A DNA stretch of 64,000 bases, from positions 4,459-68,458 of the forward strand of contig JBAVTE010000009.1 of NCBI GenBank assembly GCA_049695975.1, written 5' to 3'. Source of the DNA: Minisyncoccia bacterium (lineage in GTDB: Bacteria; Patescibacteriota; Minisyncoccia; Phycocordibacterales; GWA1-40-21). A model generated the notes under the pieces. That model worked only from the letters and a program-made list of their open reading frames with translations. It ran no database searches and was not told the DNA's origin. This document shows, piece after piece, positions 16,038-64,000 of this stretch (positions are counted from its first letter, which is position 1; the number at the start of each line of letters is the position of its first letter). The position numbers and the translations under genes were made by a program.

Positions 16038-16044
16038 TAATAAG

Positions 16045-46237: not shown

Positions 46238-48442
46238 CTATTTGAAAGGATTTATTCCTTTATAAATAGAGTTTATCATCCCTTCTATTTTTTCCGTCAT
46301 ACTTGGATTTATTTTTTCTGCTCTTTTCAACAAATCAACTGTAGTAGAAATAATCCCTTTATCATAATACCCTTTTGCAACCGCCATATATGATGAAGAA
46401 ATTCTTGAGTCGCTTGTAGTTGCATTTCCCCAAAGTGCATCAAAAGTTTTTTGATCTTGAGCAAAGATAAGAGATACACCATAAATTATTTTTGTTTCAG
46501 GATAGTTTTGTTCTAGATCATATGACTCTTTTGCCTCTTTCAATACATTATCTATTTGACCCAAGTTAAGATATGCGTTTACAAGTTGAGTTCTAAAGGC
46601 CTGCTTATTTGGAGAAAGTTCTTTTGCTTTTAAGAGATATGTTAATGCTTGATTAAAATCTCCTAAATTAACTAGAAAAATTCCAAAAAATTCTTGATAT
46701 CTTGCATCGTTTGGATAAGTAATAACCTGTGTTTTTATTTGAGTATAAGCTAAGTCAACAAATTTAGTTTTTAAATCCTGACTTGCTACTGTACCTCGAT
46801 ATACAGAAGGAGCAATTTCGAGCAATCTTTCTCTAACTTCTGCTTTTCCTAAAAATCCATTGGAAACAGCTTCTTTGAAGAAATTCAAACTAAGATCAGG
46901 ATATTTACTCTGTGTTTGTACAGCTAAAATCAAATTATGATTTGTATGAATTGGTTTATAATTTACAAAATATAAACTAGCAAAAAGTGCAATAACGACG
47001 ACAGGCGCTATCATATAAGCTACAGCCTCATTATTCTTGCCTGTCTCATCCATCCACTCAGATATTTTTTGCATGTAAGTCCCTTGCTCTCCCTTCTCCC
47101 TTCTAGAATAAATATGAATGATTGCAAAAACTGTAAAGAACAAGAACAAACTTATATTATTATCGAACACAAATAAACTCTGGAAAAAATATCCCGCGAG
47201 TAGTCCTGTAATAACTGACTTCTCTATGATAGACAAAATGCTTGCCTTTCTCCATAGCTCATATAGACATGCGAGATAAAGTCCAAGATAAAATAATAAC
47301 CCCAGAAACCCTCCGGCAACAAGCATATCGAGAGGCATATTGTGCGCCCTATCAAACCATTGCTCTTGATAATACATTTTTGGATCATAAAATTTGTTGA
47401 AAGCATAATTAAAATTTTCTTGACCCCATCCTAAAATCGGTCTCTCCATTGCACCTTTTATAGCCATTGGCCAAACGAGCTGTCTCGCTTGACCGTTTAG
47501 ATCAGTCAAAGAAACAGACAATAATCTCTGCAAGGAACCGTGACTTTTTATATAACTAGAATCCAAAATATTTTGAGTAATTTTACCAAGTCCAGTCTGC
47601 TGATAAGGAGCTGTGTCTCTAAAAATAAATGCTGAATAAGTAAAACCGAAAATAAACATCACAGCAAATATAACAACAGAAGTTTTCCTCACAAAAACAT
47701 TTTTCTTCTCGAAAATTGTAATAAGGAGAGCAGAGATCAATAGGCCAACACCCAATCCCAAAATAACCCCTCTTGAAGTGTTATAAACAAGATATGTAAA
47801 CATACCCCCTAAACATAAGTAAATATAAAATAACCAATTCGAAAAAAGTTTCTTAAGGACGATTCCCTGTTCAGTCAAGCATTTTACCAAGACATCTCTG
47901 TACAAAAGAACCAAAATAAAGAAGAAGTTGAAAAGAAAATAAACGGAGAGATAAATAGGGTTACCAAGTGGGCCGGATACTCGATAAATACCATTCGTGA
48001 TATCTACGAATGACATAATACTCATAATGAAGCTCAAGAAAACCGAGGTTCTCAAAAACCAGGACAAAAAATCATTCTTGATGACAGAAGCAAAAACAAC
48101 AAAATACATTAAAAGATGTATAAGTGTCACCCATCCGTCCATTCGTTCAAAGTTACTCCACAGAGATTTTGCAGGAGCCACACCAAATATATCTGCAAGG
48201 AACATTACTGAAACAAAAAGAAACGCAATCAAAGCCACCCAGGAAAACTTTAGTCTGCTTTCCTTATCCTTGAAAATAAGGATAAGCCAGAGAGCAAAAA
48301 CAATTTCTATAATAATGCGAAGTGTAAATGCCTTACCGACTATGTATGGAAAATACATTCCGTTTGTCACGATAAATGGTACAAGAAGCAATGCAAAAAG
48401 ACCTGTAATAACCGTTACTTTCAATAATTGTTTGATAGTCAT
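46238..48442 (-). CDS. polytopic membrane protein with O-antigen-ligase/Wzy_C domain and C-terminal periplasmic TPR repeats (candidate glycan polymerase or O-oligosaccharyltransferase)
   Basis: >10 predicted TM helices; Wzy_C-type motif RAHNMPLDMLVAGGFLGLLFY after a large external loop; C-terminal ~250 aa TPR-like (LTYLLKAKELSPNKQAFRTQLVNAYLNLGQ). Confidence 0.6.
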   Translation of the reverse strand: MTIKQLLKVTVITGLFALLLVPFIVTNGMYFPYIVGKAFTLRIIIEIVFALWLILIFKDKESRLKFSWVALIAFLFVSVMFLADIFGVAPAKSLWSNFERMDGWVTLIHLLMYFVVFASVIKNDFLSWFLRTSVFLSFIMSIMSFVDITNGIYRVSGPLGNPIYLSVYFLFNFFFILVLLYRDVLVKCLTEQGIVLKKLFSNWLFYIYLCLGGMFTYLVYNTSRGVILGLGVGLLISALLITIFEKKNVFVRKTSVVIFAVMFIFGFTYSAFIFRDTAPYQQTGLGKITQNILDSSYIKSHGSLQRLLSVSLTDLNGQARQLVWPMAIKGAMERPILGWGQENFNYAFNKFYDPKMYYQEQWFDRAHNMPLDMLVAGGFLGLLFYLGLYLACLYELWRKASILSIIEKSVITGLLAGYFFQSLFVFDNNISLFLFFTVFAIIHIYSRREKGEQGTYMQKISEWMDETGKNNEAVAYMIAPVVVIALFASLYFVNYKPIHTNHNLILAVQTQSKYPDLSLNFFKEAVSNGFLGKAEVRERLLEIAPSVYRGTVASQDLKTKFVDLAYTQIKTQVITYPNDARYQEFFGIFLVNLGDFNQALTYLLKAKELSPNKQAFRTQLVNAYLNLGQIDNVLKEAKESYDLEQNYPETKIIYGVSLIFAQDQKTFDALWGNATTSDSRISSSYMAVAKGYYDKGIISTTVDLLKRAEKINPSMTEKIEGMINSIYKGINPFK

Positions 48443-48773: not shown

Positions 48774-50120
48774 ATGGAAATCGACAATAAAGAGCAGATC
48801 AATGCAACTGTCCTTGACTATTTTACCAACTGGCAAACTTTTTGGTTTTATATAAAAGAAAAGATACAACACCCCGGTGTGCAAAAACATGGAAAAAATA
48901 TGGGGTGGATGTTCACGACAAAGATTACAAGTATGGCGATTTCATTTATCGCAACAGCGTATATAGCAAGGCATCTTGGTCCGATGAATTATGGAGAACT
49001 CAGCTATGCTATGAGCTTTGTGGGACTTTTTGGTTTTATAGCAGTTCTCGGTATAGATCAAATACTATATAGAGATCTTATAAAATACCCTGAAAAAAGA
49101 AACGAATACATGGGGACAGCACTAACTGTGAGAATAATAGCTTCCATAATTGCAGTAATGGTTTGTACATTAGGTGCTTTTATTTTTTCACCAAGAGATG
49201 TTTCTTTATTCTTAATTTTTATTATTAGTTTAACTTTTATATTTAGCTCTTTTCAATTATTGAGTTATGAATTTCAAGCAGAAATAAAATCAAAATATCC
49301 TTCTATCATTTCTTTGGTAATTGTATTGATCTTAAATATATTAAAAATAATAGTAATTTTTAATAGTAAAGGTGTTATATATCTTGCTGGAATCGTCCTG
49401 CTTGAACCCATACTTTATTCTATCGGCTTCTTATATTTTAGAATAAAAAAGTTTGGAACAATTAAATATTGGAGATTTGATAAAAATATTGCGATTTCAA
49501 TTTTAAAAGATTCATCCCCTCTTATTTTTTCATCAGTCTTCCTTGCAATATATGCCCGAATAGATCAAGTTATGATAAAAAATATGATGGATGCGGGTTC
49601 CGTCGGACTCTACAGTTCTGCAGTTACAGTCTCAGAAGTTTGGTATTTTATTCCAAATATAATTGTCTCAGCTCTATTTCCTGCAATCATAAATGCAAAA
49701 TTAACTTCAGACGGACTCTATAAAAATAGATTGAAAAAATTAACCTCACTTTTGTTTGTGTTTTCTTTAATAGCTTCAATTTTTACATCAATTTTTGCCC
49801 CAATAATAATAAAGATACTTTATGGATCTGCTTTCATAGGCGGTATAACAGTCCTACAGATATATGTGTGGTCTCTCGCCGGAACTTCATTAAGTAACTT
49901 AATAATGAATTATTTAGTAGCCCAAAATTACAGAAGGATTTCACTTTTAATAAATATTTTGCCGATGATTATAAATGTTATTTTAAATATAATCTGGATA
50001 CCAAAATACGGTATAATTGGAGCTGCATTAGCGACACTCATTTCATATTCTATTGGTCCTTTTGTCTTATTACTTTTTAAAAAAACAAGAAGTGAAATAT
50101 TAGAAATAATCAAAGCATAA
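48774..50120 (+). CDS. Wzx-like polysaccharide flippase (MOP/PST superfamily)
   Basis: 448 aa, ~12-14 TM helices, PST-family layout; divergently transcribed from the Wzy_C gene. Confidence 0.6.
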   Translation: MEIDNKEQINATVLDYFTNWQTFWFYIKEKIQHPGVQKHGKNMGWMFTTKITSMAISFIATAYIARHLGPMNYGELSYAMSFVGLFGFIAVLGIDQILYRDLIKYPEKRNEYMGTALTVRIIASIIAVMVCTLGAFIFSPRDVSLFLIFIISLTFIFSSFQLLSYEFQAEIKSKYPSIISLVIVLILNILKIIVIFNSKGVIYLAGIVLLEPILYSIGFLYFRIKKFGTIKYWRFDKNIAISILKDSSPLIFSSVFLAIYARIDQVMIKNMMDAGSVGLYSSAVTVSEVWYFIPNIIVSALFPAIINAKLTSDGLYKNRLKKLTSLLFVFSLIASIFTSIFAPIIIKILYGSAFIGGITVLQIYVWSLAGTSLSNLIMNYLVAQNYRRISLLINILPMIINVILNIIWIPKYGIIGAALATLISYSIGPFVLLLFKKTRSEILEIIKA

Positions 50121-50121
50121 T

Positions 50122-51042
50122 ATGTTTAAAATAAAAGAAAGGACAGATAATTTACGTTTTAAAATATACTATAATTCCTTGTTCAAAATAAAAGTCTGGA
50201 CAACAAGAAAAGTGGTGAAATTGTTTAAATTAGGAAGACATACTAGTTATCCATTTATAACTGGGGATAGTTTCCGAGCTTTGGCCCAGCACATTTTTGA
50301 TGAATCATCTGATATTGATTGTCCGTCAGTTATGCATAGTGATATTGTATTTGTACGGACAGATTTTTTGCATACTTTTTTTAAAAAAATACATATAAAA
50401 ATTATTAATCCTTATATTTTAATATCCCATAATGCTGACAATAACATAGACTCTCAATATGAAAAATATATCGATGATAAAATTATCCACTGGTTTGCAC
50501 AGAATCTTTTAATAGACAATAAAAAAATAACTCCTATACCGATAGGGATAACCCTTAGATTTTATGACAAAAAAAATACAACCGCAGAATTAATTAAAAA
50601 ATATCGAAATAAAATAGGTCGTATTTTAAAAATATTTTTTGGATTTTATGGAAATACCAACAAAAAGAGGTTGGGAATCGTAAATGACCTTAGGAAATGT
50701 TCTGTGTGTGTTGAATGTAAGGATTTTTTGGAAAAAGATAAGTACTATGATCAAGTTTCAAATTATGTTTTCAACGCATCACCTATCGGAAATGGGATAG
50801 ACTGTATTCGCACATGGGAATCATTATATTTAGGAACTATTCCCGTGGTTGAAAGAAGTGTGTCAACTGGATATTGGAAAAATATCGGTATTCCCCTACT
50901 TCTCGTTGATTCTTGGAAAGATTTAGAGAATGTCAGAGAAGATTGGCTTAAAAAAGAATATGAAGATATAAAAAATAAAATTGGTTCGGAAGCAATTTAT
51001 ATGGATTATTGGATAAAAGAAGTCATAAAATATAAAAATTAA
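50122..51042 (+). CDS. hypothetical protein in the glycan cluster (possible glycosyltransferase of unassigned family)
   Basis: No canonical motif recognised; tight operonic packing (2-nt gap to the upstream gene, 1-nt gap to the downstream gene). Confidence 0.3.
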   Translation: MFKIKERTDNLRFKIYYNSLFKIKVWTTRKVVKLFKLGRHTSYPFITGDSFRALAQHIFDESSDIDCPSVMHSDIVFVRTDFLHTFFKKIHIKIINPYILISHNADNNIDSQYEKYIDDKIIHWFAQNLLIDNKKITPIPIGITLRFYDKKNTTAELIKKYRNKIGRILKIFFGFYGNTNKKRLGIVNDLRKCSVCVECKDFLEKDKYYDQVSNYVFNASPIGNGIDCIRTWESLYLGTIPVVERSVSTGYWKNIGIPLLLVDSWKDLENVREDWLKKEYEDIKNKIGSEAIYMDYWIKEVIKYKN

Positions 51043-51043
51043 A

Positions 51044-51928
51044 ATGAATTATTCAATAGGAGTCGTCACATATCACGCCAGATTTGAAAAATATTTCATT
51101 CCTCTCATCAAGAAATTGACTGCTATATTTCCTGATAAGGAAATCATATGCGTAATCAATGGACATCCAGATAGAACATTGCAAATCAATTATTTAAATA
51201 ATATTACTGCTTTTTTGTCGAAATTTTCGAATGTTCGTTATTTGACTTATGATACAAATCAATCTTTATCTAAATGCTGGAATCAAATAATAATACTTTC
51301 TCAAACAGAGAAAGTTATTATTATAAATGACGACACTCAAGTAACAGACCTCTTCCGCCAAGAATTTGAAACAAAAGTTTTAGACATACCATTTTCAATT
51401 ATGAATGCCAGCTGGAGTCATTTTCTTACTTCCAAAGAAATTGTTAAAAAAGTTGGATGGTTTGATGAACGTCTCTTGGGAGTTGGGTACGAGGACGCAG
51501 ATTATGGACTAAGAATGGCAATGCTAGGCATCCCTATGACAAATACTATTTGTTTGGGACTCAATAATTATGTAGCTGGCCAAGAAAATCCTGGATGGAA
51601 AAATATTTCCCAAAAAATTAATGCATCAAAATATACATTAGTAAATTTTGAATTTTTTAAAACAAAATGGGTTACTATGGATATAAACCCAGAAATCAAA
51701 CCAGAAAATTTCAAACATAAATTACAATGGAATGATACTCTGTGTTTATTCTCTCCAAAGACAAATGAACCTACCCCTATATTTTACGATTTCAGTTGTC
51801 TTGATTATAAAATAAAAACAAGCTTTAGTTCTCTGCCTTATATTGAAAATAATTTCAAAATTACAATGCAAAAAGTATTCTTTGCATTCAAACAATTACT
51901 TAAGAAAATATATAGAAAAATGTTATAG
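51044..51928 (+). CDS. GT2/GT7-like glycosyltransferase with galactosyltransferase-type GxGxEDxDxxxR motif
   Basis: VIIINDDTQV (DxD-like) and LGVGYEDADYGLRM, which resembles the beta-1,4-galactosyltransferase C-terminal motif (WGWGGEDDD). Confidence 0.45.
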   Translation: MNYSIGVVTYHARFEKYFIPLIKKLTAIFPDKEIICVINGHPDRTLQINYLNNITAFLSKFSNVRYLTYDTNQSLSKCWNQIIILSQTEKVIIINDDTQVTDLFRQEFETKVLDIPFSIMNASWSHFLTSKEIVKKVGWFDERLLGVGYEDADYGLRMAMLGIPMTNTICLGLNNYVAGQENPGWKNISQKINASKYTLVNFEFFKTKWVTMDINPEIKPENFKHKLQWNDTLCLFSPKTNEPTPIFYDFSCLDYKIKTSFSSLPYIENNFKITMQKVFFAFKQLLKKIYRKML

Positions 51929-51934
51929 CACCAG

Positions 51935-52942
51935 CTATTTTTGAATCCAAAAACTTGGTAATTTTTTTGTAATTTCAATATTTTCAAATTCTTTACTGGA
52001 TTGAACACCCACCTTCCTGGCCCAATCAAACATTTTCTTGAGACCTTCGGATAAAAGAATCCTCTTCGGCCTGTTTGATAAAAGTCTATTTAATTTGTCG
52101 TGAGTACTATATGCATGCTTGACTTCATTTCTAGTTTCAAGATGTTTTCTTTGGATTGGTTTACCATTAGCCTTTTCAAGTTCATCTGTCATTTGATTAA
52201 TTGTGCAAGGAACATCTCCTCCAACATTTATAATTTGACTATAAAACGATTTATTCTCGACAGAGTGAGCAATGATTGGGGCAACATCATCAATATATGA
52301 AAATGCTCTGGATTGTTCCCCGTCCCCATAGATAGTTACTGGCTCATCTTTCATTATTTTGTTCATAAAAATACCGATAACATTTCTATATTTATCACCA
52401 ATATTTTGTCTTGGTCCGTAAACATTATGAGGTCTAAATATGACATAATCCATTCCAAACATCTCATTGGCCGCTTTTAAATCAAGTTCAATTGCATACT
52501 TGGCCACACCATACGGATCACAAGGCGAAGGAATCATATCTTCTGAAAATGGAGGTTTGCCATGACCATATACGGCCATTGAAGAAGTAAACACAAAACA
52601 TTTTACTCCATATTTAATAGATGCATTAATCAGATTGACACTGCCCATAAGATTATTTTCATAATTAAACTTACGAATAAAATGACTCAAACCTTCTGCG
52701 GCATAAGCAGCTAAATGATATACATATGAAAATTTGTGTTCAGCAAAAAGTTTTTCTACAAGAGTGGCGTCAGTAATTGACCCATTAATAAATAAAATAC
52801 CTGGCGAGATATTGCTTTCAAAACCTCCCGATAAATCGTCTAAGACAACGACAGAATGACCCATTTTCAAAAGTTCATCCGCAACATGAGAACCAATAAA
52901 ACCTGCACCACCAGTCACTAATATTTTTTCTGATTTATTCAT
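51935..52942 (-). CDS. NAD-dependent nucleotide-sugar epimerase/dehydratase (extended SDR; GalE/UXS-like)
   Basis: ILVTGGAGFIGSHVADELL Rossmann motif, catalytic YxxxK (YGVAKY), YGDGEQSRAF motif; start taken at the ATG at 52942. Confidence 0.8.
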   Translation of the reverse strand: MNKSEKILVTGGAGFIGSHVADELLKMGHSVVVLDDLSGGFESNISPGILFINGSITDATLVEKLFAEHKFSYVYHLAAYAAEGLSHFIRKFNYENNLMGSVNLINASIKYGVKCFVFTSSMAVYGHGKPPFSEDMIPSPCDPYGVAKYAIELDLKAANEMFGMDYVIFRPHNVYGPRQNIGDKYRNVIGIFMNKIMKDEPVTIYGDGEQSRAFSYIDDVAPIIAHSVENKSFYSQIINVGGDVPCTINQMTDELEKANGKPIQRKHLETRNEVKHAYSTHDKLNRLLSNRPKRILLSEGLKKMFDWARKVGVQSSKEFENIEITKKLPSFWIQK

Positions 52943-53048
52943 AACATTAAATATTATACACATTCATAATTATTTTGCACCATATTTATATTATGTTGAA
53001 AAATATACAAAAATTGATATAATATCAAGTAATTAATATAATAAAATT

Positions 53049-53921
53049 ATGAAATACTTAGTATTGGGATCGGCTGGTCAGATAGGTTCGACACTTGTCA
53101 AAAAAATTAAAGAAAATAAAAAAGATGAGGTTTTTGAATTCGATATAGAAAATAATCCGTCTCAGGACCTTAGAATTTATAATAACAAGCTACTAGATAA
53201 AATAATAAAAAAATCGGATTTTATCTTCTTTTTGGCTTTTGATGTTGGAGGATCAAGATATTTAAAAACATACCAAGATACTTATGATTTTGTATCAAAC
53301 AACATTAAAATTGTAGACAGGACTTTTGATGCATTGAAAAAACACAATAAACCATTTATCTTTGCCTCAAGTCAAATGGCAAATATGTCTTATTCAAGTT
53401 ACGGTCTCCTCAAATCAGTCGGAGAAAAAAATACTGAGATTTTAGGTGGACTTGTGGTTAAATTTTGGAATGTTTATGGCTTAGAGCATGATAAAAATAA
53501 ATTTCATGTTATTACTGACCTTATTATCAGAGCATCAACAACTGGTAAAATAAATCTTTTAACTGACGGTACTGAGGAAAGACAACTCCTTTTTACTGAT
53601 GATTGTGCCGAGTGTTTAATAGAATTATCAAAAAAATACAAGAATATACCAAGAAATAAACAACTGCATATCACAAATTTCAAATGGCACACCATTCTCG
53701 ATGTAGCAAACATTATTTCAAAACATTTTCCTGGTTCTAAAATAAAACCAAGTAAACAAATAGATACAGTTCAAAAAAACAAAAAAAATGAACCGGACTC
53801 ATATATTCTTAGCTATTGGAAACCAAAAACTAAACTTGAGGATGGTATTGCTTATATAATAAAAGAGATGAAAGCACATCCTGAAAAATATCCGGGTATG
53901 TCCTCAAAAAAAATCCTATAA
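53049..53921 (+). CDS. NAD(P)-binding epimerase/reductase-like protein (divergent extended SDR)
   Basis: MKYLVLGSAGQIGSTLVKKI Rossmann-type N-terminus; SSQMANMSYSSYGLLK region suggestive of a catalytic S...YxxxK triad; low similarity beyond the fold. Confidence 0.5.
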   Translation: MKYLVLGSAGQIGSTLVKKIKENKKDEVFEFDIENNPSQDLRIYNNKLLDKIIKKSDFIFFLAFDVGGSRYLKTYQDTYDFVSNNIKIVDRTFDALKKHNKPFIFASSQMANMSYSSYGLLKSVGEKNTEILGGLVVKFWNVYGLEHDKNKFHVITDLIIRASTTGKINLLTDGTEERQLLFTDDCAECLIELSKKYKNIPRNKQLHITNFKWHTILDVANIISKHFPGSKIKPSKQIDTVQKNKKNEPDSYILSYWKPKTKLEDGIAYIIKEMKAHPEKYPGMSSKKIL

Positions 53922-53945
53922 TACAGTGTTATTTTTATAATTAAT

Positions 53946-54896
53946 ATGAAAACAATCGTACTCATACCCATTAAAAATGAGGAATGGATTTTGGAGCAGA
54001 CTCTAAATAATATTTCACCGTATGTGGATGAAGTTATAATTGCAGATCAAAAATCAACAGACAAAAGTTTAGAAATCTGTAAGAAATTTTCTAATGTAAA
54101 AGTGATTGATAACCCTTATGAAGGACACAGCAATAAAGTCCGATGGTTACTTCTCGAGGAAGCCAGGAAAATCGGCAAAAATAATTTGATTGTCTGTATT
54201 GATGCCGATGAGATGATTTCACCAATGGGTTTAGAAGAAATTAAAAAACTTATCTCAGAAGGTAAGGCCACTAAGGGAGATGTATTTAAATTAAAATGGA
54301 TACAATTATGGAAAAATACTAAGGAGTATAGAGATGATGGGGTTTGGAAGGATAATTATAAAGATGTTGCTTTTATTGATAACGAAGAAATCAATGAATA
54401 CAAAAGAGATTTTGTTGTAAACGACCACACTTCTAGAGTCCCAGATACAAACATAAATAAAGAAATATCAATTTCCTATCCCCTACTTCATTTTCACTTT
54501 GTGGCTTGGAAAAGAACTGAAATGAAACAGGCTTGGTATAGGTGTTCTGAACTTATTGCTGGTTTAAGAAATGCAAAAAGAATTAATAACACTTATAGAG
54601 TAACCCTCGAACCTAAAAATATTAAACTTCTTTCTATACAAAAAGAATGGGTAGATGGATTGACTCTGACACAAAACATGGAAAAAGCTTCGAGTGATTG
54701 GCATCTGAAAGAAATTTTAGGGTTTTTCGATAAATATGGAATTAAATTTTTTGAGCAATTACAGATTTGGAATATTGACGAATTGCATAATGAATTTGTA
54801 AAAAAAGTTGGACGAGAACCAATAAGTAGAGTTTATCCCAGTTGGTTAGTTGCCTTGAACGAAATTAAAAACAAGATTAGAAATTTTCGCCCATAA
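53946..54896 (+). CDS. glycosyltransferase, GT2-like (GT-A fold)
   Basis: IVLIPIKNEEWILEQTLNNI ... EVIIADQKSTDKS ... VCIDADE (DxD) layout. Confidence 0.55.
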   Translation: MKTIVLIPIKNEEWILEQTLNNISPYVDEVIIADQKSTDKSLEICKKFSNVKVIDNPYEGHSNKVRWLLLEEARKIGKNNLIVCIDADEMISPMGLEEIKKLISEGKATKGDVFKLKWIQLWKNTKEYRDDGVWKDNYKDVAFIDNEEINEYKRDFVVNDHTSRVPDTNINKEISISYPLLHFHFVAWKRTEMKQAWYRCSELIAGLRNAKRINNTYRVTLEPKNIKLLSIQKEWVDGLTLTQNMEKASSDWHLKEILGFFDKYGIKFFEQLQIWNIDELHNEFVKKVGREPISRVYPSWLVALNEIKNKIRNFRP

Positions 54897-54898
54897 AT

Positions 54899-55834
54899 AT
54901 GGAAAAAACATTTAAACAAATTGTGATAGACAAATTAAGAAACATTATTCCATTGTCATTTAGAAAAAAAATTGGGCCTTTTTTTGCTTACATAACCTAC
55001 ATATTTAATATCTATATATTAAAAAACAAAAAACAACCAAAAGTATTGTCGATCATAGAAACTATTGATTTAATAAATAAAATGAATCTTTCTGTCATAC
55101 GATTTGGCGATGGGGAAATGTCTCTAATGGATGGTGTTGATTTAGCTTTTCAAAAATACGATTCGGGACTTGCCCAAAGACTCGTTACTATTTTGCAGAC
55201 AAAATCAGACAAATTATTGATTTGCATTCCTGGAATTTGGAAAAATATAAACAGTTTCAACAAAAGAGATTTTTGGTTTTTTATGCATCATCTTTTTAGA
55301 TATAGACACACTTGGCTAAATTTATTATCTAGTGATCAGATTTATGGTAATACTTTTGTGACTCGTCCCTATTTAACATTCAAAGACAAATCTAAAAGCG
55401 GATATACTTTTGATAAAATATTATCTATTTGGAAAGAAAAAGATATAGTATTAATCGAGGGTGAAAAAAGTCGACTAGGTGTAGGCAATGATCTGTTTAA
55501 TAATGTAAAATCATTCAAAAGAATACTGTGTCCGTCTGAAAACGCTTTCTCAAAATATAATGAAATAAAAGCAGAAGCGGTAAAAATTGATAAAAATAAA
55601 TTAATTTTAATTTCTCTCGGTCCGACTGCCAAAGTGTTGGCTTTTGACTTATTTTTATTAGGATATAGAGTAGTTGATATTGGCCACATAGATATGGAGT
55701 ATGAAATGTTTTTGAAAAAGGAAACAAAAATTATAAAGGTCAGATACAAATATTTCAATGAAATAAGTGAAAGAAATCCTGAAGAATATAATGACAAAAA
55801 ATATCTCGATCAAATAATTACTAAAATAATATGA
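54899..55834 (+). CDS. GT-D-type glycosyltransferase (DUF1792-like)
   Basis: VIRFGDGEMSLMDGVDLAFQ resembles the RFGDGE (DxE metal site) signature recalled for the DUF1792/GT-D family. Confidence 0.45.
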   Translation: MEKTFKQIVIDKLRNIIPLSFRKKIGPFFAYITYIFNIYILKNKKQPKVLSIIETIDLINKMNLSVIRFGDGEMSLMDGVDLAFQKYDSGLAQRLVTILQTKSDKLLICIPGIWKNINSFNKRDFWFFMHHLFRYRHTWLNLLSSDQIYGNTFVTRPYLTFKDKSKSGYTFDKILSIWKEKDIVLIEGEKSRLGVGNDLFNNVKSFKRILCPSENAFSKYNEIKAEAVKIDKNKLILISLGPTAKVLAFDLFLLGYRVVDIGHIDMEYEMFLKKETKIIKVRYKYFNEISERNPEEYNDKKYLDQIITKII

Positions 55835-56895
55835 AAAAAATCAAAGTAAAATATTGTAAATACGACAAATTTGATGAAAATACTCCCCTGACCTATAATT
55901 ATTTCATACATAATATACTCAAAAAATATTATGATGTAGAAGTGTCAGACAACCCAGACTATGTATTTTATCATGAATCAACGTATGATTATTTGAAATA
56001 TAATTGTATTAGAATATTCTATACAGCTGAAAATGTCAGCCCAAATTTTAATCTTTGCGATTATGCTATTAGTAATGACTATATAAATTTTGAAGATAGA
56101 CATTATCGACTAGCATCTTACCTTGTCGCGACTTTTTATCAAAAAAAGGAGTTGGAATTAGCCAAAGATATTGATATAACAAAACCAAAAATTTTTACAA
56201 AAGAAGACCTTGCTAAAAAAACTGATTTTTGTAGTTTTGTTTATTCGAACTATCTCGCCGATGAAAGGAGAAAAATTCTTTTTGATAAAATTTACGCGTA
56301 CAAAAAAGTAGATGCCGGTGGTAAATATCTCAATAATATTGGAGGTCCTACCGACAATAAATTAGGATTTGAAATGAAACACAAATTTTCAATGGCTATC
56401 GAAAATTCCTCTCGTAATGGATATACAACAGATAGAATTGTTTGTTCTTTTATGGCAAATACTATACCAATATATTGGGGTAATCCAGAAATCGGGCGTG
56501 AATTTAATACTAAACGCTTCATAAACTGTCATGACTATAAAACATTCGATGAAGCAGTGGAAAGGGTAAAAGAAATAGATAATAATGATGAGCTTTACTT
56601 AAAAATAATAAATGAACCATTATTTGCAGAAGATTATAGTTTTGAAAAAGCTACGAATGGCCTTGAAAAATTTTTAAGAAATATCTTTGATCAACCAATT
56701 GAAAATGCATCCCGTCGAACCATAAATATGGCGCGATCTGTAAAAATGGAAAAAAATGAAAAAATTATCGAAAGATATACAAAAAAACAGGCAAAAATAA
56801 AAAAACTTTTGGCCAAATTATATCAACCATTCAAGAAAATCAAATCGTTAGAAAATTTTAAAGAAAATTATTTTAGAAAAAAAATATTAAAATGA
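55831..56895 (+). CDS. alpha-(1,3/4)-fucosyltransferase, family GT10 (Helicobacter FutA-like)
   Basis: HKFSMAIENSSRNGYTTDRIVCSFMANTIPIYWGNPEIGREFNTKRFINCHDYKTFDEA matches the FucT motifs YKFNLCFENS..GYVTEKI...TIPIYWG...FVNVHDF. Confidence 0.8.
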   Translation: MKKIKVKYCKYDKFDENTPLTYNYFIHNILKKYYDVEVSDNPDYVFYHESTYDYLKYNCIRIFYTAENVSPNFNLCDYAISNDYINFEDRHYRLASYLVATFYQKKELELAKDIDITKPKIFTKEDLAKKTDFCSFVYSNYLADERRKILFDKIYAYKKVDAGGKYLNNIGGPTDNKLGFEMKHKFSMAIENSSRNGYTTDRIVCSFMANTIPIYWGNPEIGREFNTKRFINCHDYKTFDEAVERVKEIDNNDELYLKIINEPLFAEDYSFEKATNGLEKFLRNIFDQPIENASRRTINMARSVKMEKNEKIIERYTKKQAKIKKLLAKLYQPFKKIKSLENFKENYFRKKILK

Positions 56896-58100
56896 TAGAG
56901 ATACATACGCCCAAAGTTGAAAAGCAAAGATATCCATATTTAGATGCCATGCGAGGAATTGCTATTTTGCTCGTGATTATGTATCACACAACTATTTTTA
57001 TGATTCACAGTACCCCGAATATTCTCTACAGAATATCTGGAGAAGGGGCACGCGGGGTTCAAATCTTTTATATTGTGAGTGCACTTACTTTATGCATGAG
57101 TCTTTCTGCCAGTTTTTTCACTGGAAAAAGACTGGAACAAATCAAGTTTTGGATCAGAAGATTTTTTAGAATTGCACCTGCCTTCTATTTTGTAATAATA
57201 ATTTCCACCGTAATAGGAGTACTGTTCCCTCTTTGGAAAAGCATGCTTTATTTGGATATCAACTCAATTAGTGTTATTTCTGCAATTACTTTCACAAATA
57301 ATTTTTTACCTGAATATATTAACAGTGTCATCCCTGGCCAATGGTCAGTCGCTATTGAAATGTTTTTCTATCTTACAGTACCACTATTTTTCTTAAGAAT
57401 AAAAAGTCTTTCCTCAGCAAAAAAATACTTCTTTTTATTTTTTGGTTTTGCATGTTTAATTGAATTACTTCTTCCTATGTTTCTCCCAGCAATTGCTAGT
57501 GAAAATACCAAAATTTTCCTTTTCTATACTATCCCTATCCAACTTCCAACTTTTTTACTTGGTTTTATTGCTTTTTTTATGCTACGGGAAAATGAACATA
57601 AACCATTTTGGATGCTAAAAGAATTTACTTCACTCTTATTAATAGTATCTGCCAGCGAAATAATTTTTCTTGCTCTTAGATATTTTATTTTTCATAACAT
57701 TGATATATCATTAATTACTCCAAGAGTATATATTGAATCAGTATTGTTTCTAGGGCTAGTATTACTTCTTGCAAAAGGATATGTTTCTTTTTTGCAAAAT
57801 AAAGTATTTCAATACATTGGAAAAATCAGTTACAGTATTTATTTAGTTCAGTTTATAGCCTTTTTTATTATCACAAAAAATAGCATATATCCAATAGTTG
57901 CTTCCTACTTTCATAATGGTGTGGAAGAATATATTTTTCTTTCTGTTGCAACCATACTTCTTTGTGTTGGGATATCTTCTCTTACATTCAAATACATTGA
58001 AACCCCTGGTCAAAAATTAGGAAATTATATTTACAAAAAAGTAGCAGAAAGATACAATCGCCCATCCTCACAAAGCGATAATATTACCAAAACACCATAA
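56892..58100 (+). CDS. membrane acyltransferase family 3 (O-acetyltransferase, OatA/WecH-like)
   Basis: LDAMRGIAILLVIMYHT N-terminal motif; 10-11 TM helices. Confidence 0.75.
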   Translation: MIEIHTPKVEKQRYPYLDAMRGIAILLVIMYHTTIFMIHSTPNILYRISGEGARGVQIFYIVSALTLCMSLSASFFTGKRLEQIKFWIRRFFRIAPAFYFVIIISTVIGVLFPLWKSMLYLDINSISVISAITFTNNFLPEYINSVIPGQWSVAIEMFFYLTVPLFFLRIKSLSSAKKYFFLFFGFACLIELLLPMFLPAIASENTKIFLFYTIPIQLPTFLLGFIAFFMLRENEHKPFWMLKEFTSLLLIVSASEIIFLALRYFIFHNIDISLITPRVYIESVLFLGLVLLLAKGYVSFLQNKVFQYIGKISYSIYLVQFIAFFIITKNSIYPIVASYFHNGVEEYIFLSVATILLCVGISSLTFKYIETPGQKLGNYIYKKVAERYNRPSSQSDNITKTP

Positions 58101-59048
58101 ATGATTACAATATTTACAGAAAATTCAATAGAGGAACCTGTGATTTCTTTTATTAAAAGATATTTAAGAGCATTAAAAAAAATTGCACTTGGAAAAAGTT
58201 TCTCATTAAAATATGGTGGACATTATGCTGTTACCCGAAGTTTACTTGTAGGTTTAGATAAATTACAAGTAAACTATAATTACAACCCCACAAAAATAGA
58301 CGACCTTAATAAAATAGTCCTAGTTCTCAGCAATATCCGAGCTTTAAAGACAGCAATCAAGCTAAAACAAAATGGCAAAATAAAGAAACTTTTTGCAGGA
58401 CCAAATATCATAAACGATCCAGCTGATGAAAAAGAATTATTAAGTTCAAAAGAGATAGATAAGTTCATTGTGAATAGTGACTGGACAAAGGAACTCTACG
58501 GGATTGCTGTTCCAGAATTAATAAACAAATTATCAATCTGGCCAGCTGGAGTAGATGAAGAATACTGGTCACCTAAACCAGAGCAAAAGAACAAGAAAGC
58601 ACTTGTCTATTGGAAAAATGGAACGAGAGATTTCTATCAGTCAGTCGTGAATATTTTGACAGAAAATGGCTGGAAAATATCAACAATAAAGTATGGCAAA
58701 TATAAAGAAAAAGAATTTAATAAAAAATTATCAGATGTATCAATATCTATTTTTCTAAGTAATTGGGAAAGCCAAGGGCTGGCGTTAGCCGAATCGTGGG
58801 CTATGGATATACCTACCCTCGTCTTCAATCCAAAAACTATTTATGAAAAATATCAAGTCGAAACTTCATCAAGTCCATACCTCTCAAAGGATACTGGGTA
58901 TGATTGGAAAGATATAAATGAGTTGAATTATTTATTGAAAAATGAGAATCTTATGGATATACATCCTAGAAAATGGCTTCTAGAAAATATGACAGACAAA
59001 ATATGTGCGCAGAAATTACTTAACATAATATATGAAAAAACTAATTAA
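58101..59048 (+). CDS. GT-B glycosyltransferase (GT4-like)
   Basis: C-terminal EX7E-type motif region NWESQGLALAESWAMDIPTLVF. Confidence 0.5.
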   Translation: MITIFTENSIEEPVISFIKRYLRALKKIALGKSFSLKYGGHYAVTRSLLVGLDKLQVNYNYNPTKIDDLNKIVLVLSNIRALKTAIKLKQNGKIKKLFAGPNIINDPADEKELLSSKEIDKFIVNSDWTKELYGIAVPELINKLSIWPAGVDEEYWSPKPEQKNKKALVYWKNGTRDFYQSVVNILTENGWKISTIKYGKYKEKEFNKKLSDVSISIFLSNWESQGLALAESWAMDIPTLVFNPKTIYEKYQVETSSSPYLSKDTGYDWKDINELNYLLKNENLMDIHPRKWLLENMTDKICAQKLLNIIYEKTN

Positions 59049-59748
59049 AAAAATGATAGGGGTTATTCTGTCCCCTTTTGTGTTAAAAGATTTCCTTCAT
59101 TACAAAAAATTGGATAAAGAAAAGAGATTCAGAAACAATCTTTTTGATTTTTTCCCATGCGTCTTTGACAAAACTATTAAAACAAATTTTGATGCACACT
59201 ACATATATCATACATCTTGGGCCGCAAGAAAAGTAAAAGAAATCAATCCGAAAAAACACACTGATATATCTTCTAGTTTGTATTTTTCTGGAATTTTATC
59301 TGCATTTATACCAGTAGATTTTTATGATTATAGGCCAGCAGAACTTAACCTCTCCCAACTTAAAAGTGGTCATGTAGATCTCGTAAAGTTACCTTTTACA
59401 GACAATAGTATCTATTCTTTGTCATGTATGCACACCATAGAACATATTGGCCTCGGTAGGTATGGAGATCCCATAGATCCTGAAGGTGATCTAAAAGCTA
59501 TAAATGAAATAAAAAGAGTGTTAGCAAAAGAAGGTTCCCTTCTCTTCGTAGTACCAATTGGTAATCCTAAAATTGAATATAATGCACATAGAATATATTC
59601 GTATGATCAAGTATTGTCATATTTTCAAAAATTAAAATTAAAAGAATTTAGTTTGATTACTGATAGTGGAAAATTTATGTATAATAGTACAAAAGAAGAG
59701 GCTGATAAACAATCATATGGCTGTGGATGTTTTTGGTTTATTAAATAA
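59032..59748 (+). CDS. putative SAM-dependent methyltransferase (DUF268-like)
   Basis: VDLVKLPFTDNSIYSLSCMHTIEHIGLGRYGDPIDPEGD ... RVLAKEGSLLFVVPIG resembles the methyltransferase post-I/II region and the GLGRYGDP motif recalled for DUF268. Confidence 0.45.
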   Translation: MKKLIKKMIGVILSPFVLKDFLHYKKLDKEKRFRNNLFDFFPCVFDKTIKTNFDAHYIYHTSWAARKVKEINPKKHTDISSSLYFSGILSAFIPVDFYDYRPAELNLSQLKSGHVDLVKLPFTDNSIYSLSCMHTIEHIGLGRYGDPIDPEGDLKAINEIKRVLAKEGSLLFVVPIGNPKIEYNAHRIYSYDQVLSYFQKLKLKEFSLITDSGKFMYNSTKEEADKQSYGCGCFWFIK

Positions 59749-59759
59749 TAATTGATAAA

Positions 59760-60626
59760 ATGTTGATTGTAAAAATAAAAGCAGGACTAGGAAACCAGAT
59801 GTTTCAATATGCATTTGGTAGAGCGTTGTCTCTCGAACGTAAAGAACCTTTGTTCTTAGATACTTTCTACTACAAAAATCAGCCCGAGCGAGACGCGAAA
59901 AGAGAATATATCCTTGATAAATTTAATATAGAAGCCAATTATGCATCGGAAGAGATGTATAAAAAATATAATTCAAAATTAGAAGTTTTTTTCAGAAAAT
60001 TATACCGAAGAATAAAGAAAGTGGAAGAATATACTTATTATCCTTCTTTCATGAAATCAAAAGCCTCTTATTTTGAAGGATATTGGGCAAATCAAAAATA
60101 TTTTTTAAAGTATGAAAATATTATTCGTAAAGAATTATCCTTAAAAAATCCTTTCGGTGATTCCGCTAAAAAAATAGATATACAAATGTCTGATTGTCTA
60201 TCAAAGGGCGAGATCCCTGTATCAATCCATATCCGTAGAGGTGATTTTGTATCTAACCCACATTCCGCTGCGTATAATGGGTTACTCGGAATTCCCCACT
60301 ATGAAAAAGCTGTGGAACTTTTGATGTCTAAATATTTCAAAAACATATCTGTGTTTATTTTTTCCGACGATATCGCTTGGGTAAAAGAAAATTTAAAATT
60401 ACCTTGCCCAATGTATTTTGTATCAAATAGTGACATTAAAGATTATGAAGAAATAATTTTGATGAGTGAATGTAAACATCACGTCCTCGCAAATTCAACT
60501 TTTTCTTGGTGGGGTGCGTGGCTCAATCCCAATCATGATAAAATTGTTATAGTTCCCAAACAATGGATTGCCAAAAAAACCACAGAGGAAATTGATTTAA
60601 TACCAAAAGAATGGATAACAATATAA
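59760..60626 (+). CDS. alpha-(1,2)-fucosyltransferase, family GT11 (FutC-like)
   Basis: N-terminal KAGLGNQMFQYAFGRAL (GT11 motif I), VSIHIRRGDFV (motif II), HVLANSTFSWWGAWLN (motif IV). Confidence 0.85.
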   Translation: MLIVKIKAGLGNQMFQYAFGRALSLERKEPLFLDTFYYKNQPERDAKREYILDKFNIEANYASEEMYKKYNSKLEVFFRKLYRRIKKVEEYTYYPSFMKSKASYFEGYWANQKYFLKYENIIRKELSLKNPFGDSAKKIDIQMSDCLSKGEIPVSIHIRRGDFVSNPHSAAYNGLLGIPHYEKAVELLMSKYFKNISVFIFSDDIAWVKENLKLPCPMYFVSNSDIKDYEEIILMSECKHHVLANSTFSWWGAWLNPNHDKIVIVPKQWIAKKTTEEIDLIPKEWITI

Positions 60627-61384
60627 AAACAAAAGTAAGCATAGTTATAATAACAAGAAATAGAGCAATTTTTATTATTAAAGCTATTCAAAGTGTTTTA
60701 GATCAGACTTTATATAATTGGGAACTTTTGATTGGTGATGATGATTCTAAAGATGATACAGAAAAAATCGTCAGAGAATTTTCAAACAAAGACAACAGAA
60801 TAAAATATTTTAAAAACTCCCCTGCCTTGGGTATATCAAAAAACAGAAACAAAGCACTCTCTCTTGTTACTGGAAAATATATCTCAATTCTTGACAGTGA
60901 TGACTCATGGATAGACAAAGAAAAAATACAAACGCAGTTTAGTTTTCTAGAAAATAATCCTGATTATGTTTTAATTGGTTCTAATATAAAAGTTATAGAT
61001 GAAAAAAATAACTTTATAAGAAATACTGATTTTTCAACTGAAGATGCAGATATAAGAAAAAAAATACTTATTACAAATCAAATCCCCCATTCAAGTGTAA
61101 TGTATAGAAAAGATATTGCAGAAAAGGTAGGTAGATATAATGAAAATCTTTCTTGTGATGAAGACTTAGATTTATTTTTAAGATTAGGTCTCCTTGGTAA
61201 GATGAAAAATCTAACCGAAATTACTACTTCTTACACCAAACATTCGAAAGGATTTTCTCAACAGCAAAAGATATCTATGGCATGGAATCATTTCATTATA
61301 ATATTGCGAAATTTTGGAAAATACCCAAACTGGTTTATAGCTATTGTTTGGGCAAAATTTAGAATTTTAAAAAACTTATTTTAA
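60611..61384 (+). CDS. glycosyltransferase family 2
   Basis: VSIVIITRNRAIFIIKAIQSVLDQTLYNWELLIGDDDSKDDTEKIV and ILDSDDSW (DxD). Confidence 0.75.
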   Translation: MDNNIKTKVSIVIITRNRAIFIIKAIQSVLDQTLYNWELLIGDDDSKDDTEKIVREFSNKDNRIKYFKNSPALGISKNRNKALSLVTGKYISILDSDDSWIDKEKIQTQFSFLENNPDYVLIGSNIKVIDEKNNFIRNTDFSTEDADIRKKILITNQIPHSSVMYRKDIAEKVGRYNENLSCDEDLDLFLRLGLLGKMKNLTEITTSYTKHSKGFSQQQKISMAWNHFIIILRNFGKYPNWFIAIVWAKFRILKNLF

Positions 61385-62796: not shown

Positions 62797-64000
62797 TTAT
62801 TCTTTAAGTTTTTCCACACGTAGCATATCACGCAATTCTTTTTCAGGAATTTCTTTTATTGGTGGTTTTTGTTCTAACTTTATCTCAGGTTTTTTATCTA
62901 TCTCACTTTTATTTTGATGAAGATTCGCATTGTTATTATCTGGAATTTTTGATCCAAGTACGGCCTCGATTGCAGATTTTAAATCAGAAATATTTTTAGG
63001 TTTATTTATTTCTAATTCTCCATGTTGTTTTCTTTCACTTTCAAAGGTAGATGGGCAGATTCCTGTCTTCCCAGGAATAAAAGATGGGTGTGAAGATGAC
63101 AAATCAGAATTTGTCACTTTTTTTACCATTTCCTTTAATGGCAAAAATCCTTCGCCATCTTCTTCTGTATCATCTATCAAAGGCGGTTTTTGAAAAACCG
63201 GTCTACTATGCTGAATCGGCAAAACAGGTTTTTCCTGAGCTTGTGGCTTTTGAAAAATCGGCTTCGCTTCATGATTTGGTAAAATAGGTTTTTGTTCAGT
63301 TTTTGGAACAAATTCTTTTTTGGGTAACACTTTTTCTAAAACTGGCAAACTCTTCGCTGAAACAGGATCTGGTTCCACCACTGAAATCGGTGAAACTTTC
63401 GAAGGCGGGAAAGATTTCGACTGTGCTACCAGCTTGTGATCAGAAGCAAACCATTTTTTTATTGAATCTTCTACCATAGCTCGTGGGTGTGCAAACTGTC
63501 TCCTGGATTCTTCTATGATTTCTCTTTTATATGATATCACTGGTTCTGGATATGGTGGAAGTGTCGCTCCAGAAAAAGGAGTGGAAGAAGCCCCGTCGAT
63601 CATCAGCTTCAAATAAATTTGGAATATACCGAGGTTTACCAAATCCTCGGCGGTAAACTGTGGAGCAAACTCTTTTTCAAGTACTTCTGCATCAAAGGCA
63701 CCGACTCGAAACGTAATCATTGTGCCGACGTTACCAAAGACAGCGGCGCGCACTTCCTCTGGCATCTGCTCGATATACTGGTGGGTAATAGTAAGATTGA
63801 GTTTGTATTTTCTTGCTTCCGAAAGAATATTTGCAAATGATTCATTTGCAAAAGATTGAAATTCATCGACATATAGATAAAAATTTGGAAGTTTTTTCAA
63901 CTCTTTCTCCTGAATATCTGCACGACTCATTGCAGCAAGATAAATTTTGGTTACAAGCATACTTCCGAGAAGCATTGCGTTTGATTCCCCCACTCTTCCT
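62797..64000 (-). CDS. C-terminal part of an FtsK/HerA/TraD-superfamily P-loop ATPase with long Pro/Lys-rich low-complexity tail; N-terminus outside window
   Basis: FYLYVDEFQSF (Walker B-like), ARKYKLNLTITHQ and NVGTMITFRVGAFDAEVL resemble the FtsK/T4CP RKYGxxLxxATQ and NIPTRIAFxV motifs; frame is open to the window edge. Confidence 0.45.
   Translation of the reverse strand, partial: GRVGESNAMLLGSMLVTKIYLAAMSRADIQEKELKKLPNFYLYVDEFQSFANESFANILSEARKYKLNLTITHQYIEQMPEEVRAAVFGNVGTMITFRVGAFDAEVLEKEFAPQFTAEDLVNLGIFQIYLKLMIDGASSTPFSGATLPPYPEPVISYKREIIEESRRQFAHPRAMVEDSIKKWFASDHKLVAQSKSFPPSKVSPISVVEPDPVSAKSLPVLEKVLPKKEFVPKTEQKPILPNHEAKPIFQKPQAQEKPVLPIQHSRPVFQKPPLIDDTEEDGEGFLPLKEMVKKVTNSDLSSSHPSFIPGKTGICPSTFESERKQHGELEINKPKNISDLKSAIEAVLGSKIPDNNNANLHQNKSEIDKKPEIKLEQKPPIKEIPEKELRDMLRVEKLKE

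Follow-up and report, generated by a model that had tools for sequence, protein, structure and literature searches.

A probably native surface-glycan locus with GT10 and GT11 fucosyltransferase genes in a Minisyncoccia bacterium

A 64,000-nt stretch of DNA from a Minisyncoccia bacterium (the window; coordinates are window positions) encodes two predicted fucosyltransferases of glycosyltransferase (GT) families GT10 (55831-56895) and GT11 (59760-60626). Minisyncoccia are a class in the phylum Minisyncoccota, that is, of the Patescibacteria or Candidate Phyla Radiation (CPR). An earlier reading of the letters alone (the sequence-only reading) had described the pair as Helicobacter-like, close to the epsilon-proteobacterial enzymes and possibly horizontally acquired. 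The analysis points to a different origin. Most probably, this is a native cell-surface glycan locus of its host and not an import from Helicobacter, with a GT-D/GT10 gene pair as an old, vertically retained core and exchangeable downstream modules. The locus shows family membership, conserved catalytic motifs, operon-like packing, a lineage-specific phylogeny and conserved synteny. Both fucosyltransferases are already present in NCBI at 100% identity, annotated as 'glycosyltransferase family 10' and 'alpha-1,2-fucosyltransferase' of a Minisyncoccia metagenome-assembled genome (MAG).

Ancestry of the GT10 fucosyltransferase

The GT10 survey covered one genome per GTDB species. A relative was found in 470 genomes, and the best 80 were examined as loci (numbered with L). 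The best 41 of the 470 genomes were all CPR or unclassified MAGs, with GT10 proteins 50-78% identical to that of the window. Their CPR labels were Magasanik-, Wolfe-, Kaiser-, Taylor-, Falkow-, Graci- and Paceibacteria. The next 39 genomes (38-54% identity) were Lachnospiraceae and other Clostridia, Bacteroidales and one Paenibacillus. Campylobacterota were absent from the best 80 of the 470 GT10-bearing genomes, and identity to the Helicobacter pylori fucosyltransferase (HpFucT) is 33%. The best 120 database matches were 54-78% identical, and each named one was a Patescibacteria MAG.

The phylogenetic analysis placed the 42 CPR sequences, including the window GT10, in one clade in 100 of 100 bootstraps (unrooted neighbour-joining tree of 82 sequences with Kimura distances; HpFucT represented by residues 39-314, rebuilt from the alignment to the solved structure). 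The window GT10 is sister to the proteins of L002 and L003. Its Kimura distances are 0.21-0.75 to CPR, 0.69-1.16 to other phyla and 1.31 to HpFucT. GT10 is thus located deep within a Patescibacteria-specific clade, an outcome that the sequence-only reading had itself named as refuting its proposal. The proposed closeness to epsilon-proteobacterial enzymes did not hold, and the motifs quoted as its mark are family-wide. Together with a neighbourhood conserved in CPR and the lack of mobile-element hallmarks, described below, the position in the tree contradicts a Helicobacter-like acquisition. A plasmid tblastn search for mobile carriers yielded distant matches, with a best identity of 30-35%.

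Layout of the locus

The six-frame list of open reading frames (ORFs) gives coordinates identical to those of the sequence-only reading. Genes and promoter-like sites of the locus are:

46238-48442, minus strand: 734-aa polytopic membrane protein with a Wzy_C domain (O-antigen ligase/polymerase type) and a C-terminal TPR region; divergent from the cluster
48774-50120, plus strand: Wzx-type flippase, Polysacc_synt (Pfam PF01943 1.1e-29; ~11 transmembrane segments)
50122-51042, plus strand: 306-aa protein of unclear family (RXYLT1_C-like, Pfam PF24785 2.6e-5, below threshold)
51044-51928, plus strand: GT2 glycosyltransferase (Pfam Glycos_transf_2 6e-7)
51935-52963, minus strand: short-chain dehydrogenase/reductase (SDR) epimerase/dehydratase, GalE-like, not Gmd (Pfam Epimerase 8e-58)
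52996-53042, plus strand: two best sigma-70-like promoter matches, TTGAAA-16-TATAAT (with TG) and TTGATA-17-TATAAT (11/12 each)
53049-53921, plus strand: short SDR of 290 aa (SDR290), specificity not assigned (Pfam Epimerase 7e-19)
53946-54896, plus strand: GT2 glycosyltransferase (Pfam Glycos_transf_2 1e-12)
54899-55834, plus strand: GT-D fold glycosyltransferase, SP_1767/DUF1792 family (Pfam GT-D 2.6e-87; NCBIfam TIGR03728)
55831-56895, plus strand: GT10 fucosyltransferase, predicted alpha-1,3/4 (Pfam; PDB 2nzw; Foldseek; CPR clade)
56892-58100, plus strand: membrane acyltransferase family 3, predicted glycan O-acetyltransferase, accessory (Pfam Acyl_transf_3 5e-26; ~10 transmembrane segments)
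58101-59048, plus strand: GT-B fold GT4-like (retaining-type) glycosyltransferase with EX7E motif (AlphaFold/Foldseek)
59032-59748, plus strand: DUF268/class I methyltransferase-like protein, predicted sugar O-methyltransferase (Pfam DUF268 2.2e-17, Methyltransf_11 7e-4)
59760-60626, plus strand: GT11 fucosyltransferase, annotated alpha-1,2, HIRRGD at residues 157-162 (Pfam PF01531 8e-33)
60611-61384, plus strand: GT2 glycosyltransferase, last of the run, convergent with murD (Pfam Glycos_transf_2 6e-32)

ORF and Pfam evidence confirmed that GT10 (354 aa) and GT11 (288 aa) lie in one tightly packed, same-strand run with the acyltransferase (402 aa), the GT4-like enzyme (315 aa) and the DUF268 methyltransferase (238 aa). 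The reported overlaps of the GT10 start with the GT-D gene and of its stop with the acyltransferase gene are both 4-nt ATGA junctions. Intergenic gaps range from -17 to +24 nt across 53049-61384 and from -17 to +11 nt across 53946-61384. The sole sizeable gap, 52964-53048, holds both best promoter-like matches. Such sites numbered 95 against a shuffled expectation of 88.5, which is not above chance in AT-rich DNA, and position alone was used. It is suggestive of the likely start of a nine-gene same-strand unit (53049-61384). No terminator-like site of note was seen on the plus strand inside this unit.

A Shine-Dalgarno core (GGAG, GAGG or AGGA at -18 to -4) precedes none of the 44 window genes, and the upstream regions are A/T-rich. 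The background frequency of the core is 6.3% of random 15-mers, and about three occurrences are expected by chance among 44 genes. The genome appears to initiate translation without Shine-Dalgarno pairing. Translational coupling at the ATGA overlaps is plausible from their geometry. As Shine-Dalgarno sites are missing, any such coupling would proceed by termination-reinitiation.

The Wzy_C protein (Pfam PF04932 5.4e-18; TPR_8 weak) has about 11 hydrophobic segments. L003, L008 and L015 also have a homologue upstream of the cluster. The Wzx flippase has homologues at 50-65% identity in most CPR loci. The 306-aa protein has homologues in six CPR loci (L007, L008, L009, L015, L023 and L042) and may be an unclassified glycosyltransferase. 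The flanks are ordinary chromosome with genes for RNase R, SMC, RNase III, NusB, DnaE, ThrRS, phosphoketolase/acetate kinase, BipA, HisRS, UppP, an AddA-like helicase, RpoD, DnaG, a Pif1-like helicase, TrmD, S16 and MurD.

Conserved neighbourhood in CPR relatives

The proteins of the window cluster were searched by tblastn against the 80 loci; downstream counts refer to the 31 CPR loci that extend 5 kb or more past GT10. In 31 of 39 CPR loci, GT10 is immediately preceded by a GT-D gene, and most of these junctions have gaps of -4 to +19 nt. Downstream of GT10, the 31 loci encode GT11 on the same strand in 19 cases, the 315-aa GT4-like protein in 18, a GT2 in 16, DUF268 in 13 and the acyltransferase in 3. 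The order GT4-like, DUF268, GT11 is kept in 12. The DUF268 proteins are 56-75% identical and usually encoded directly upstream of GT11. A GT2 of the 60611-61384 type adjoins GT11 in 15 CPR loci. The acyltransferase is limited to L001-L003, plus a weak match in L010. L001, the closest relative, has the same five-gene order. The 39 non-CPR loci contained none of the GT10 partner genes, apart from one weak GT11 match.

The GT-D protein resembles the DUF1792/SP_1767 enzymes of streptococcal serine-rich-repeat adhesin glycosylation. Pfam GT-D and TIGR03728 are both above cut-off (the latter with 323 bits against 290.75). It differs in being a stand-alone protein of 311 aa that in CPR is almost always followed by GT10. 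No description of a GT-D/GT10 pairing was found, and literature searches yielded no publication on fucosyltransferases in Patescibacteria/CPR. The CPR-wide GT-D/GT10 core is undescribed, and one GT10 subclade has an altered motif (TDR, see below); otherwise the locus contains already annotated members of known families.

The 315-aa GT4-like protein is a 'hypothetical protein' in NCBI with a sub-threshold Pfam match (E=0.009). Its structural model (pLDDT 94) matched 8xsh, 3c4q (MshA), 8dvz (PglA) and 3mbo (BshA) in Foldseek with E-values of 4e-9 to 1e-7, and the EX7E pair E223/E231 is invariant. At the fold level, these matches to retaining GT4 enzymes of GT-B structure, together with the EX7E pair, justify the 'GT4-like' label of the sequence-only reading.

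Just past murD, a TraG/VirD4-type coupling-protein-like gene (62797-63993, minus strand) runs off the window end. A TrwB_AAD_bind protein is encoded immediately downstream of the glycan cluster in L001 (15782-17710). The similar place makes the gene look like conserved chromosomal synteny and not a mobile element.

Catalytic residues and C-terminus of GT10

GT10 is a genuine family member, in line with the sequence-only reading, and its catalytic and donor-binding motifs are intact except for one substituted residue pair, described below. Both Pfam domains exceed their curated thresholds (FucT_N PF18025 4e-23, 82.1 bits, cut-off 27.2; Glyco_transf_10 PF00852 7e-16, 58.9 bits, cut-off 23.9). 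TIPIYWG is found at residues 211-217 and FINCHD at 230-235. Among solved structures, HpFucT is closest (phmmer against 2nzw 1.5e-36). The AlphaFold model (pLDDT 85.6) had its best Foldseek match with 2nzx (E=9e-21, TM ~0.62). The top seven matches were HpFucT entries (E 1e-17 to 9e-21, TM 0.60-0.64), followed by FUT13, FUT9 and FUT11. This ranking is due to the choice of enzymes that were crystallised, not to ancestry.

The HpFucT FutA (PDB 2NZW/2NZX/2NZY/5ZOI) and the window GT10 share the two Pfam domains, a GT-B fold, the TIPIYWG and F(V/I)NxHD motifs and two basic-rich predicted terminal helices. In the alignment with 2nzw, E67 corresponds to the base E95, R146/R147 to Arg195, N192 to Asn240 and Y198 to Tyr246. 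The equivalents of these residues are invariant in 20 CPR homologues. In HpFucT, Glu95 is the catalytic base, Glu249 stabilises the oxocarbenium ion and Glu249 mutants are inactive (PMC4202792). The Y-x-T-E-K motif with HpFucT Glu249 and Lys250 reads Y198-T-T-D201-R202 in the window GT10 (56420-56435): the charge is kept and the residues are changed. This TDR variant is limited to the subclade of the window (L001-L006, L022 and 26 of the 120 best database matches). The other 66 loci and HpFucT carry EK, and two ER cases were also recorded. The variant enzyme is expected to be active, judging from conservative substitutions fixed under evident purifying selection.

The differences from HpFucT extend beyond the 33% identity and the D201-R202 pair. 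The window GT10 follows directly on a GT-D gene, belongs to a separate CPR-only clade and is encoded in one operon with GT11, whereas the H. pylori fut genes are unlinked. H. pylori-type enzymes carry 2-10 DDLRxNY heptad repeats, then two amphipathic C-terminal helices (PMC4202792). A check for this C-terminus, suggested by the sequence-only reading, gave no heptad-repeat linker: GT10 has no DDLRxNY repeats and no 21-nt tandem period. Its last 69 residues contain 21 K/R versus 7 D/E, a feature conserved across the CPR clade. AlphaFold predicts two helices in the basic tail (300-353), at 300-335 (net charge +9) and 338-353 (+3). Their hydrophobic moments were not above those of shuffled controls. 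A cationic, membrane-associating tail is plausible from the model.

Phase variation of H. pylori fut genes occurs through homopolymer tracts. It was considered for the window GT10 and rejected: the gene has a single A8 run at its 3' end, and A/T runs of at least 8 nt occur at 0.28/kb window-wide.

The GT11 fucosyltransferase

GT11 likewise proved to be a genuine family member with intact motifs. The Glyco_transf_11 match of PF01531 is above threshold (114.3 bits, cut-off 23.9) and full length (residues 4-288 on profile positions 35-297 of 298). GLGNQMFQYAF is located at residues 9-19 and ANSTFSWWGAWLN at 244-256. The HIRRGD stretch is the HxRRxD motif, which binds the donor in GT11; its first Arg is critical in WbsJ (PMC4202792). 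All of 35 homologues keep R159, R160 and D162, and at least 90% of them keep H157. Further invariant columns are G9, G11, N12, Q13, F15, N245, S246, W250, W251, A253, W254 and L255. No solved GT11 structure exists. Against solved structures, the single sequence had no match, and the profile gave only sub-threshold FUT8 matches over the HxRRxD region.

GT11 taxonomy was assessed from eight named matches, the CPR-labelled loci and four plasmid outgroups. The nearest labelled sequences are from CPR (L003 77%, L002 67%, L015 48%). All eight named matches in the best 120 are Patescibacteria or unclassified 'bacterium' MAGs. Named non-CPR relatives (Neorhizobium, Phocaeicola, Chelatococcus and Lactococcus) are at best 29-35% identical. 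The family is large, with 26,395 representatives at 50% clustering.

With characterised bacterial GT11 enzymes (H. pylori FutC; E. coli WbsJ, WbwK, WbiQ and WbgL), the window protein shares full-length PF01531, HxRRxD, the invariant N-terminal GxGNQxF and the C-terminal NSTFSWW(G/A)AWL, a likeness at the level of profile and motifs. Like the E. coli O-antigen enzymes, it is encoded in a Wzx/Wzy-type glycan cluster. It differs in a host without an outer membrane or lipopolysaccharide and in a linkage that is predicted only.

Base composition and island hallmarks

The sequence-only reading had described the region as even more AT-rich than its flanks. This is true of the whole 12.6-kb cluster at 48774-61384, with a guanine-plus-cytosine (GC) content of 0.300 versus 0.348 elsewhere (Mann-Whitney p=1e-5), and not specific for the GT10-GT11 segment, which at 0.303 is no lower than the rest. 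Codon positions 1 and 2 account for most of the difference: the cluster has GC1 0.371 versus 0.450, GC2 0.292 versus 0.331 and GC3 0.237 versus 0.264 (p=0.07). The cluster proteins are poor in G, A, E and V and rich in I, Y, F and N. The tetranucleotide correlation of 0.94-0.97 is inside the range of the window itself. The recommended GC and tetranucleotide comparison thus gave a mixed result: GC is lower and codon use shifted, GC3 is near-native and tetranucleotides are within range. Surface-polysaccharide loci are typically lower in GC than their flanks. Together with the missing island hallmarks described next, the composition fits a native low-GC surface-glycan locus with some intra-lineage shuffling and not a recent foreign island.

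Hallmarks of an island were not detected. No tRNA gene lies beside the cluster; the single tRNA of the window, at 14271-14344, is 34 kb away. Integrase or transposase domains were absent from the scanned window ORFs, and a search for flanking direct repeats yielded only short AT-rich chance matches.

Two other genes stand out in composition. An FG-GAP/PKD repeat protein (10808-11857, minus strand) has the highest gene GC in the window (0.435, GC3 0.377) and is compositionally more deviant than the fucosyltransferase cluster. A PKD-domain protein (44215-45678, minus strand), probably a repetitive surface protein, has an unusually high GC2 of 0.525. Direct repeats in its gene at 45011-45101 and 45272-45362 are 261 nt apart and 81% identical over 91 nt.

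Fucose donor supply

Gene neighbours in relatives bear on the donor of GT10. Bona fide gmd-fcl pairs are located 1-3 kb from a GT10 orthologue in four CPR loci (L017:11232-13253, L019:12141-14167, L027:12955-14983 and L041:12853-14937). Their NCBIfam scores are 556-567 bits for Gmd (cut-off 415) and 500-523 for Fcl (cut-off 500). These four loci mostly do not have the downstream GT4-like/DUF268/GT11 block. The pairs support GDP-L-fucose as the probable donor of the CPR GT10 clade. CPR relatives have 48 SDR genes in the vicinity of the module, eight of them Fcl-like.

The two SDRs of the window were considered as Gmd and Fcl and rejected, as both score far below the curated NCBIfam cut-offs. 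The SDR at 51935-52963 reaches 165 bits for galE (cut-off 262) and 9.5e-7 for gmd. SDR290 reaches 34.6 bits for Fcl (cut-off 500), a very weak Fcl-like tail. Homologues of SDR290 (72-79% identical) are found only at L002:6392-7255, L003:6383-7249 and L004:8341-9204. SDR290 might supply a different nucleotide sugar.

CDP-glucose 4,6-dehydratase genes were also observed in the relatives, at L016:817-1893 (minus strand; 473 bits, cut-off 278) and as similar ORFs in L023, L025, L027, L029 and L030. They suggest 3,6-dideoxyhexose or related CDP-sugar pathways in CPR glycan loci.

Proposed pathway

The nine-gene unit and three upstream genes would provide seven cytoplasmic glycosyltransferases (three GT2, GT-D, GT10, GT4-like and GT11), which may assemble an oligosaccharide stepwise on a lipid carrier. 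Two fucoses would be attached, one by GT10 in alpha-1,3/4 linkage and the other by GT11, most likely in alpha-1,2 linkage. Both enzymes would use GDP-L-fucose in an inverting, metal-independent GT-B mechanism. In GT10, E67 is the putative catalytic base, and R146/147 and D201-R202 may hold the donor. Decoration of the glycan can be attributed to the DUF268 methyltransferase and the membrane acyltransferase. Wzx would flip the glycan outward, where the Wzy_C-domain protein could polymerise it or ligate it onto a surface acceptor. Steps, linkages, acceptors and destination are inferred from family functions.

The locus resembles Wzx/Wzy O-antigen and capsule clusters: a Wzx, a Wzy_C protein, several glycosyltransferases, SDRs, an O-acetyltransferase and a methyltransferase form one low-GC block. 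It differs in that neither an initiating phosphoglycosyltransferase nor a chain-length regulator was found in the window, that Wzy_C is fused to TPR and that the host is a monoderm-like CPR bacterium.

Evaluation of alternative explanations

Several observations weigh against a native fucosylation locus with a vertically retained core. The synonymous codon distance of the cluster is 0.044 versus a permutation mean of 0.027 (p=0.0005). Co-divergence of GT10 and GT11 is weak (Pearson 0.32, Mantel p=0.009, Spearman 0.04). Strict co-inheritance of the two is not claimed for this reason, and the weak correlation indicates a mosaic locus with a stable GT-D/GT10 core and partly exchangeable downstream modules. 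In the deep GT11 tree, Alphaproteobacteria, Bacteroidota and Bacillota interleave with distant CPR copies, and the GT11 comparison stands without H. pylori FutC. Family membership does not fix the GT11 linkage, as GT11 also includes the alpha-1,3 enzyme Hh0072 (PMC4202792). D201-R202 in place of the E-K of HpFucT and 66 other loci could mean a different activity or donor choice. Neither gmd, fcl nor a salvage kinase was found in the 64-kb window or the +/-10 kb flanks of the closest relatives. An initiating phosphoglycosyltransferase (Bac_transf or Glycos_transf_4) was absent from the scanned window ORFs; the scan skipped some short ORFs and the two largest ones (33106-39994).

Three of the alternatives concern origin. 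A recent transfer of GT10 and GT11 from Helicobacter or other Campylobacterota would explain the AT-rich composition, the shifted synonymous codon use and a GC content some 5 points below the flanks, and HpFucT is the best match among solved structures. It is hardly credible in view of 33% identity to HpFucT against 50-78% to CPR, a CPR clade in all bootstraps, no Campylobacterota in the best 80 of 470 genomes, partner genes conserved in CPR only, family-wide motifs and the lack of heptad repeats. The nearly native GC3, tetranucleotides within range and the missing tRNA, integrase and flanking repeats add to this; for GT10, such a transfer is effectively refuted. An ancient inter-phylum transfer could join the CPR GT10 with that of Clostridia and Bacteroidales, with the gene native since an old acquisition and the direction not assigned. 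Lachnospiraceae/Clostridia and Bacteroidales are next-best at an identity rather high for such distant phyla, and much nearer to CPR than HpFucT is. The groups separate cleanly, with full bootstrap support for CPR monophyly and no shared neighbourhood, and an unrooted tree permits inference of neither transfer nor direction. An ancient transfer is rather unlikely. A stronger contender, a little short of an even chance, is a variable glycan island reshuffled among Patescibacteria, in which GT-D/GT10 are stable, whereas the modules after them, this GT11 among them, came in by exchange from other CPR lineages. What follows GT10 differs between loci (GT11 in 19 of 31, the acyltransferase in 3, gmd-fcl in four), GT10-GT11 distances correlate weakly, GC is below that of the flanks and no other 13-gene block of the window deviates as far in codon use. 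On the other side, the GC difference is mostly one of amino-acid composition. L002 and L003 supply the best matches for the window GT10, GT11, DUF268, acyltransferase and SDR290 alike, which indicates that the block travels together within the subclade. Reshuffling of this kind is also compatible with a native locus.

The remaining two concern function. The GT10 of the window subclade may no longer transfer L-fucose, with another GDP-6-deoxyhexose as donor or altered catalysis. The restriction of D201-R202 to seven loci and 26 of 120 matches, at a position critical in HpFucT (Glu249; PMC4202792), is in line with this idea. SDR290 occurs only in L002-L004, and gmd/fcl are found near four EK-type loci and near no DR-type locus. 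Each of the two exchanges is a conservative one, though (an acid for an acid, a base for a base), and no variation was seen at the other donor and catalytic positions. Members of the subclade, 65-78% identical to one another, are clearly subject to purifying selection. SDR290 is absent from L005 and L022, gmd/fcl could be located elsewhere in the genome, and gmd-fcl in 4 of ~34 versus 0 of 6 loci is not statistically meaningful. A loss of fucose transfer is improbable. The glycan could also be moved en bloc to proteins such as pilins or S-layer, with the Wzy_C/TPR protein as a PglL/PilO-like O-oligosaccharyltransferase. In the cluster, Wzy_C occurs once, in a 734-aa protein where it is fused to a TPR region. 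O-antigen ligases and O-oligosaccharyltransferases have this catalytic domain in common, and Patescibacteria are not known to have an outer membrane or lipid A acceptor. Wzy_C equally fits a polymerase or a ligase to a cell-wall glycopolymer, and no acceptor protein was identified in the locus. Protein O-glycosylation is a tentative and rather unlikely option.

Other observations in the window

One ORF (4920-5831, minus strand) combines a NusB domain (residues 7-136) with a NUDIX hydrolase (165-282), an unusual fusion. A phosphoketolase (XFP) and acetate kinase pair (14853-18501, minus strand) represents a compact fermentative ATP-yielding route, typical of the reduced metabolism of CPR.

Implications

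The main value of the analysis is negative: it found no Helicobacter-derived transfer, and the window contains a correctly annotated fucosyltransferase pair in a normal surface-glycan locus. A wider model, speculative and on the unlikely side as a whole, would combine a phylum-wide GT-D and a lineage-specific GT10 as fucosylation core with exchangeable modules (GT4-like/DUF268/GT11/GT2 or gmd-fcl). Such a system would yield a surface glycan of formally Lewis/H-like type, with two fucoses as well as methyl and acetyl groups, for host recognition or phage evasion, and the window subclade would have re-tuned its GT10 (TEK to TDR) and gained a private SDR for a different donor. This TEK-to-TDR subclade is a natural experiment on a residue pair considered essential in HpFucT. 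The compact CPR enzymes of GT10 and GT11 could be of interest as biocatalysts for fucosylated oligosaccharides. CPR/Patescibacteria depend on surface contact with host cells, and their glycans are almost unstudied. GT-D/GT10 in 31 of 39 loci and gmd-fcl in four lead to a testable prediction: many such organisms would display fucose.

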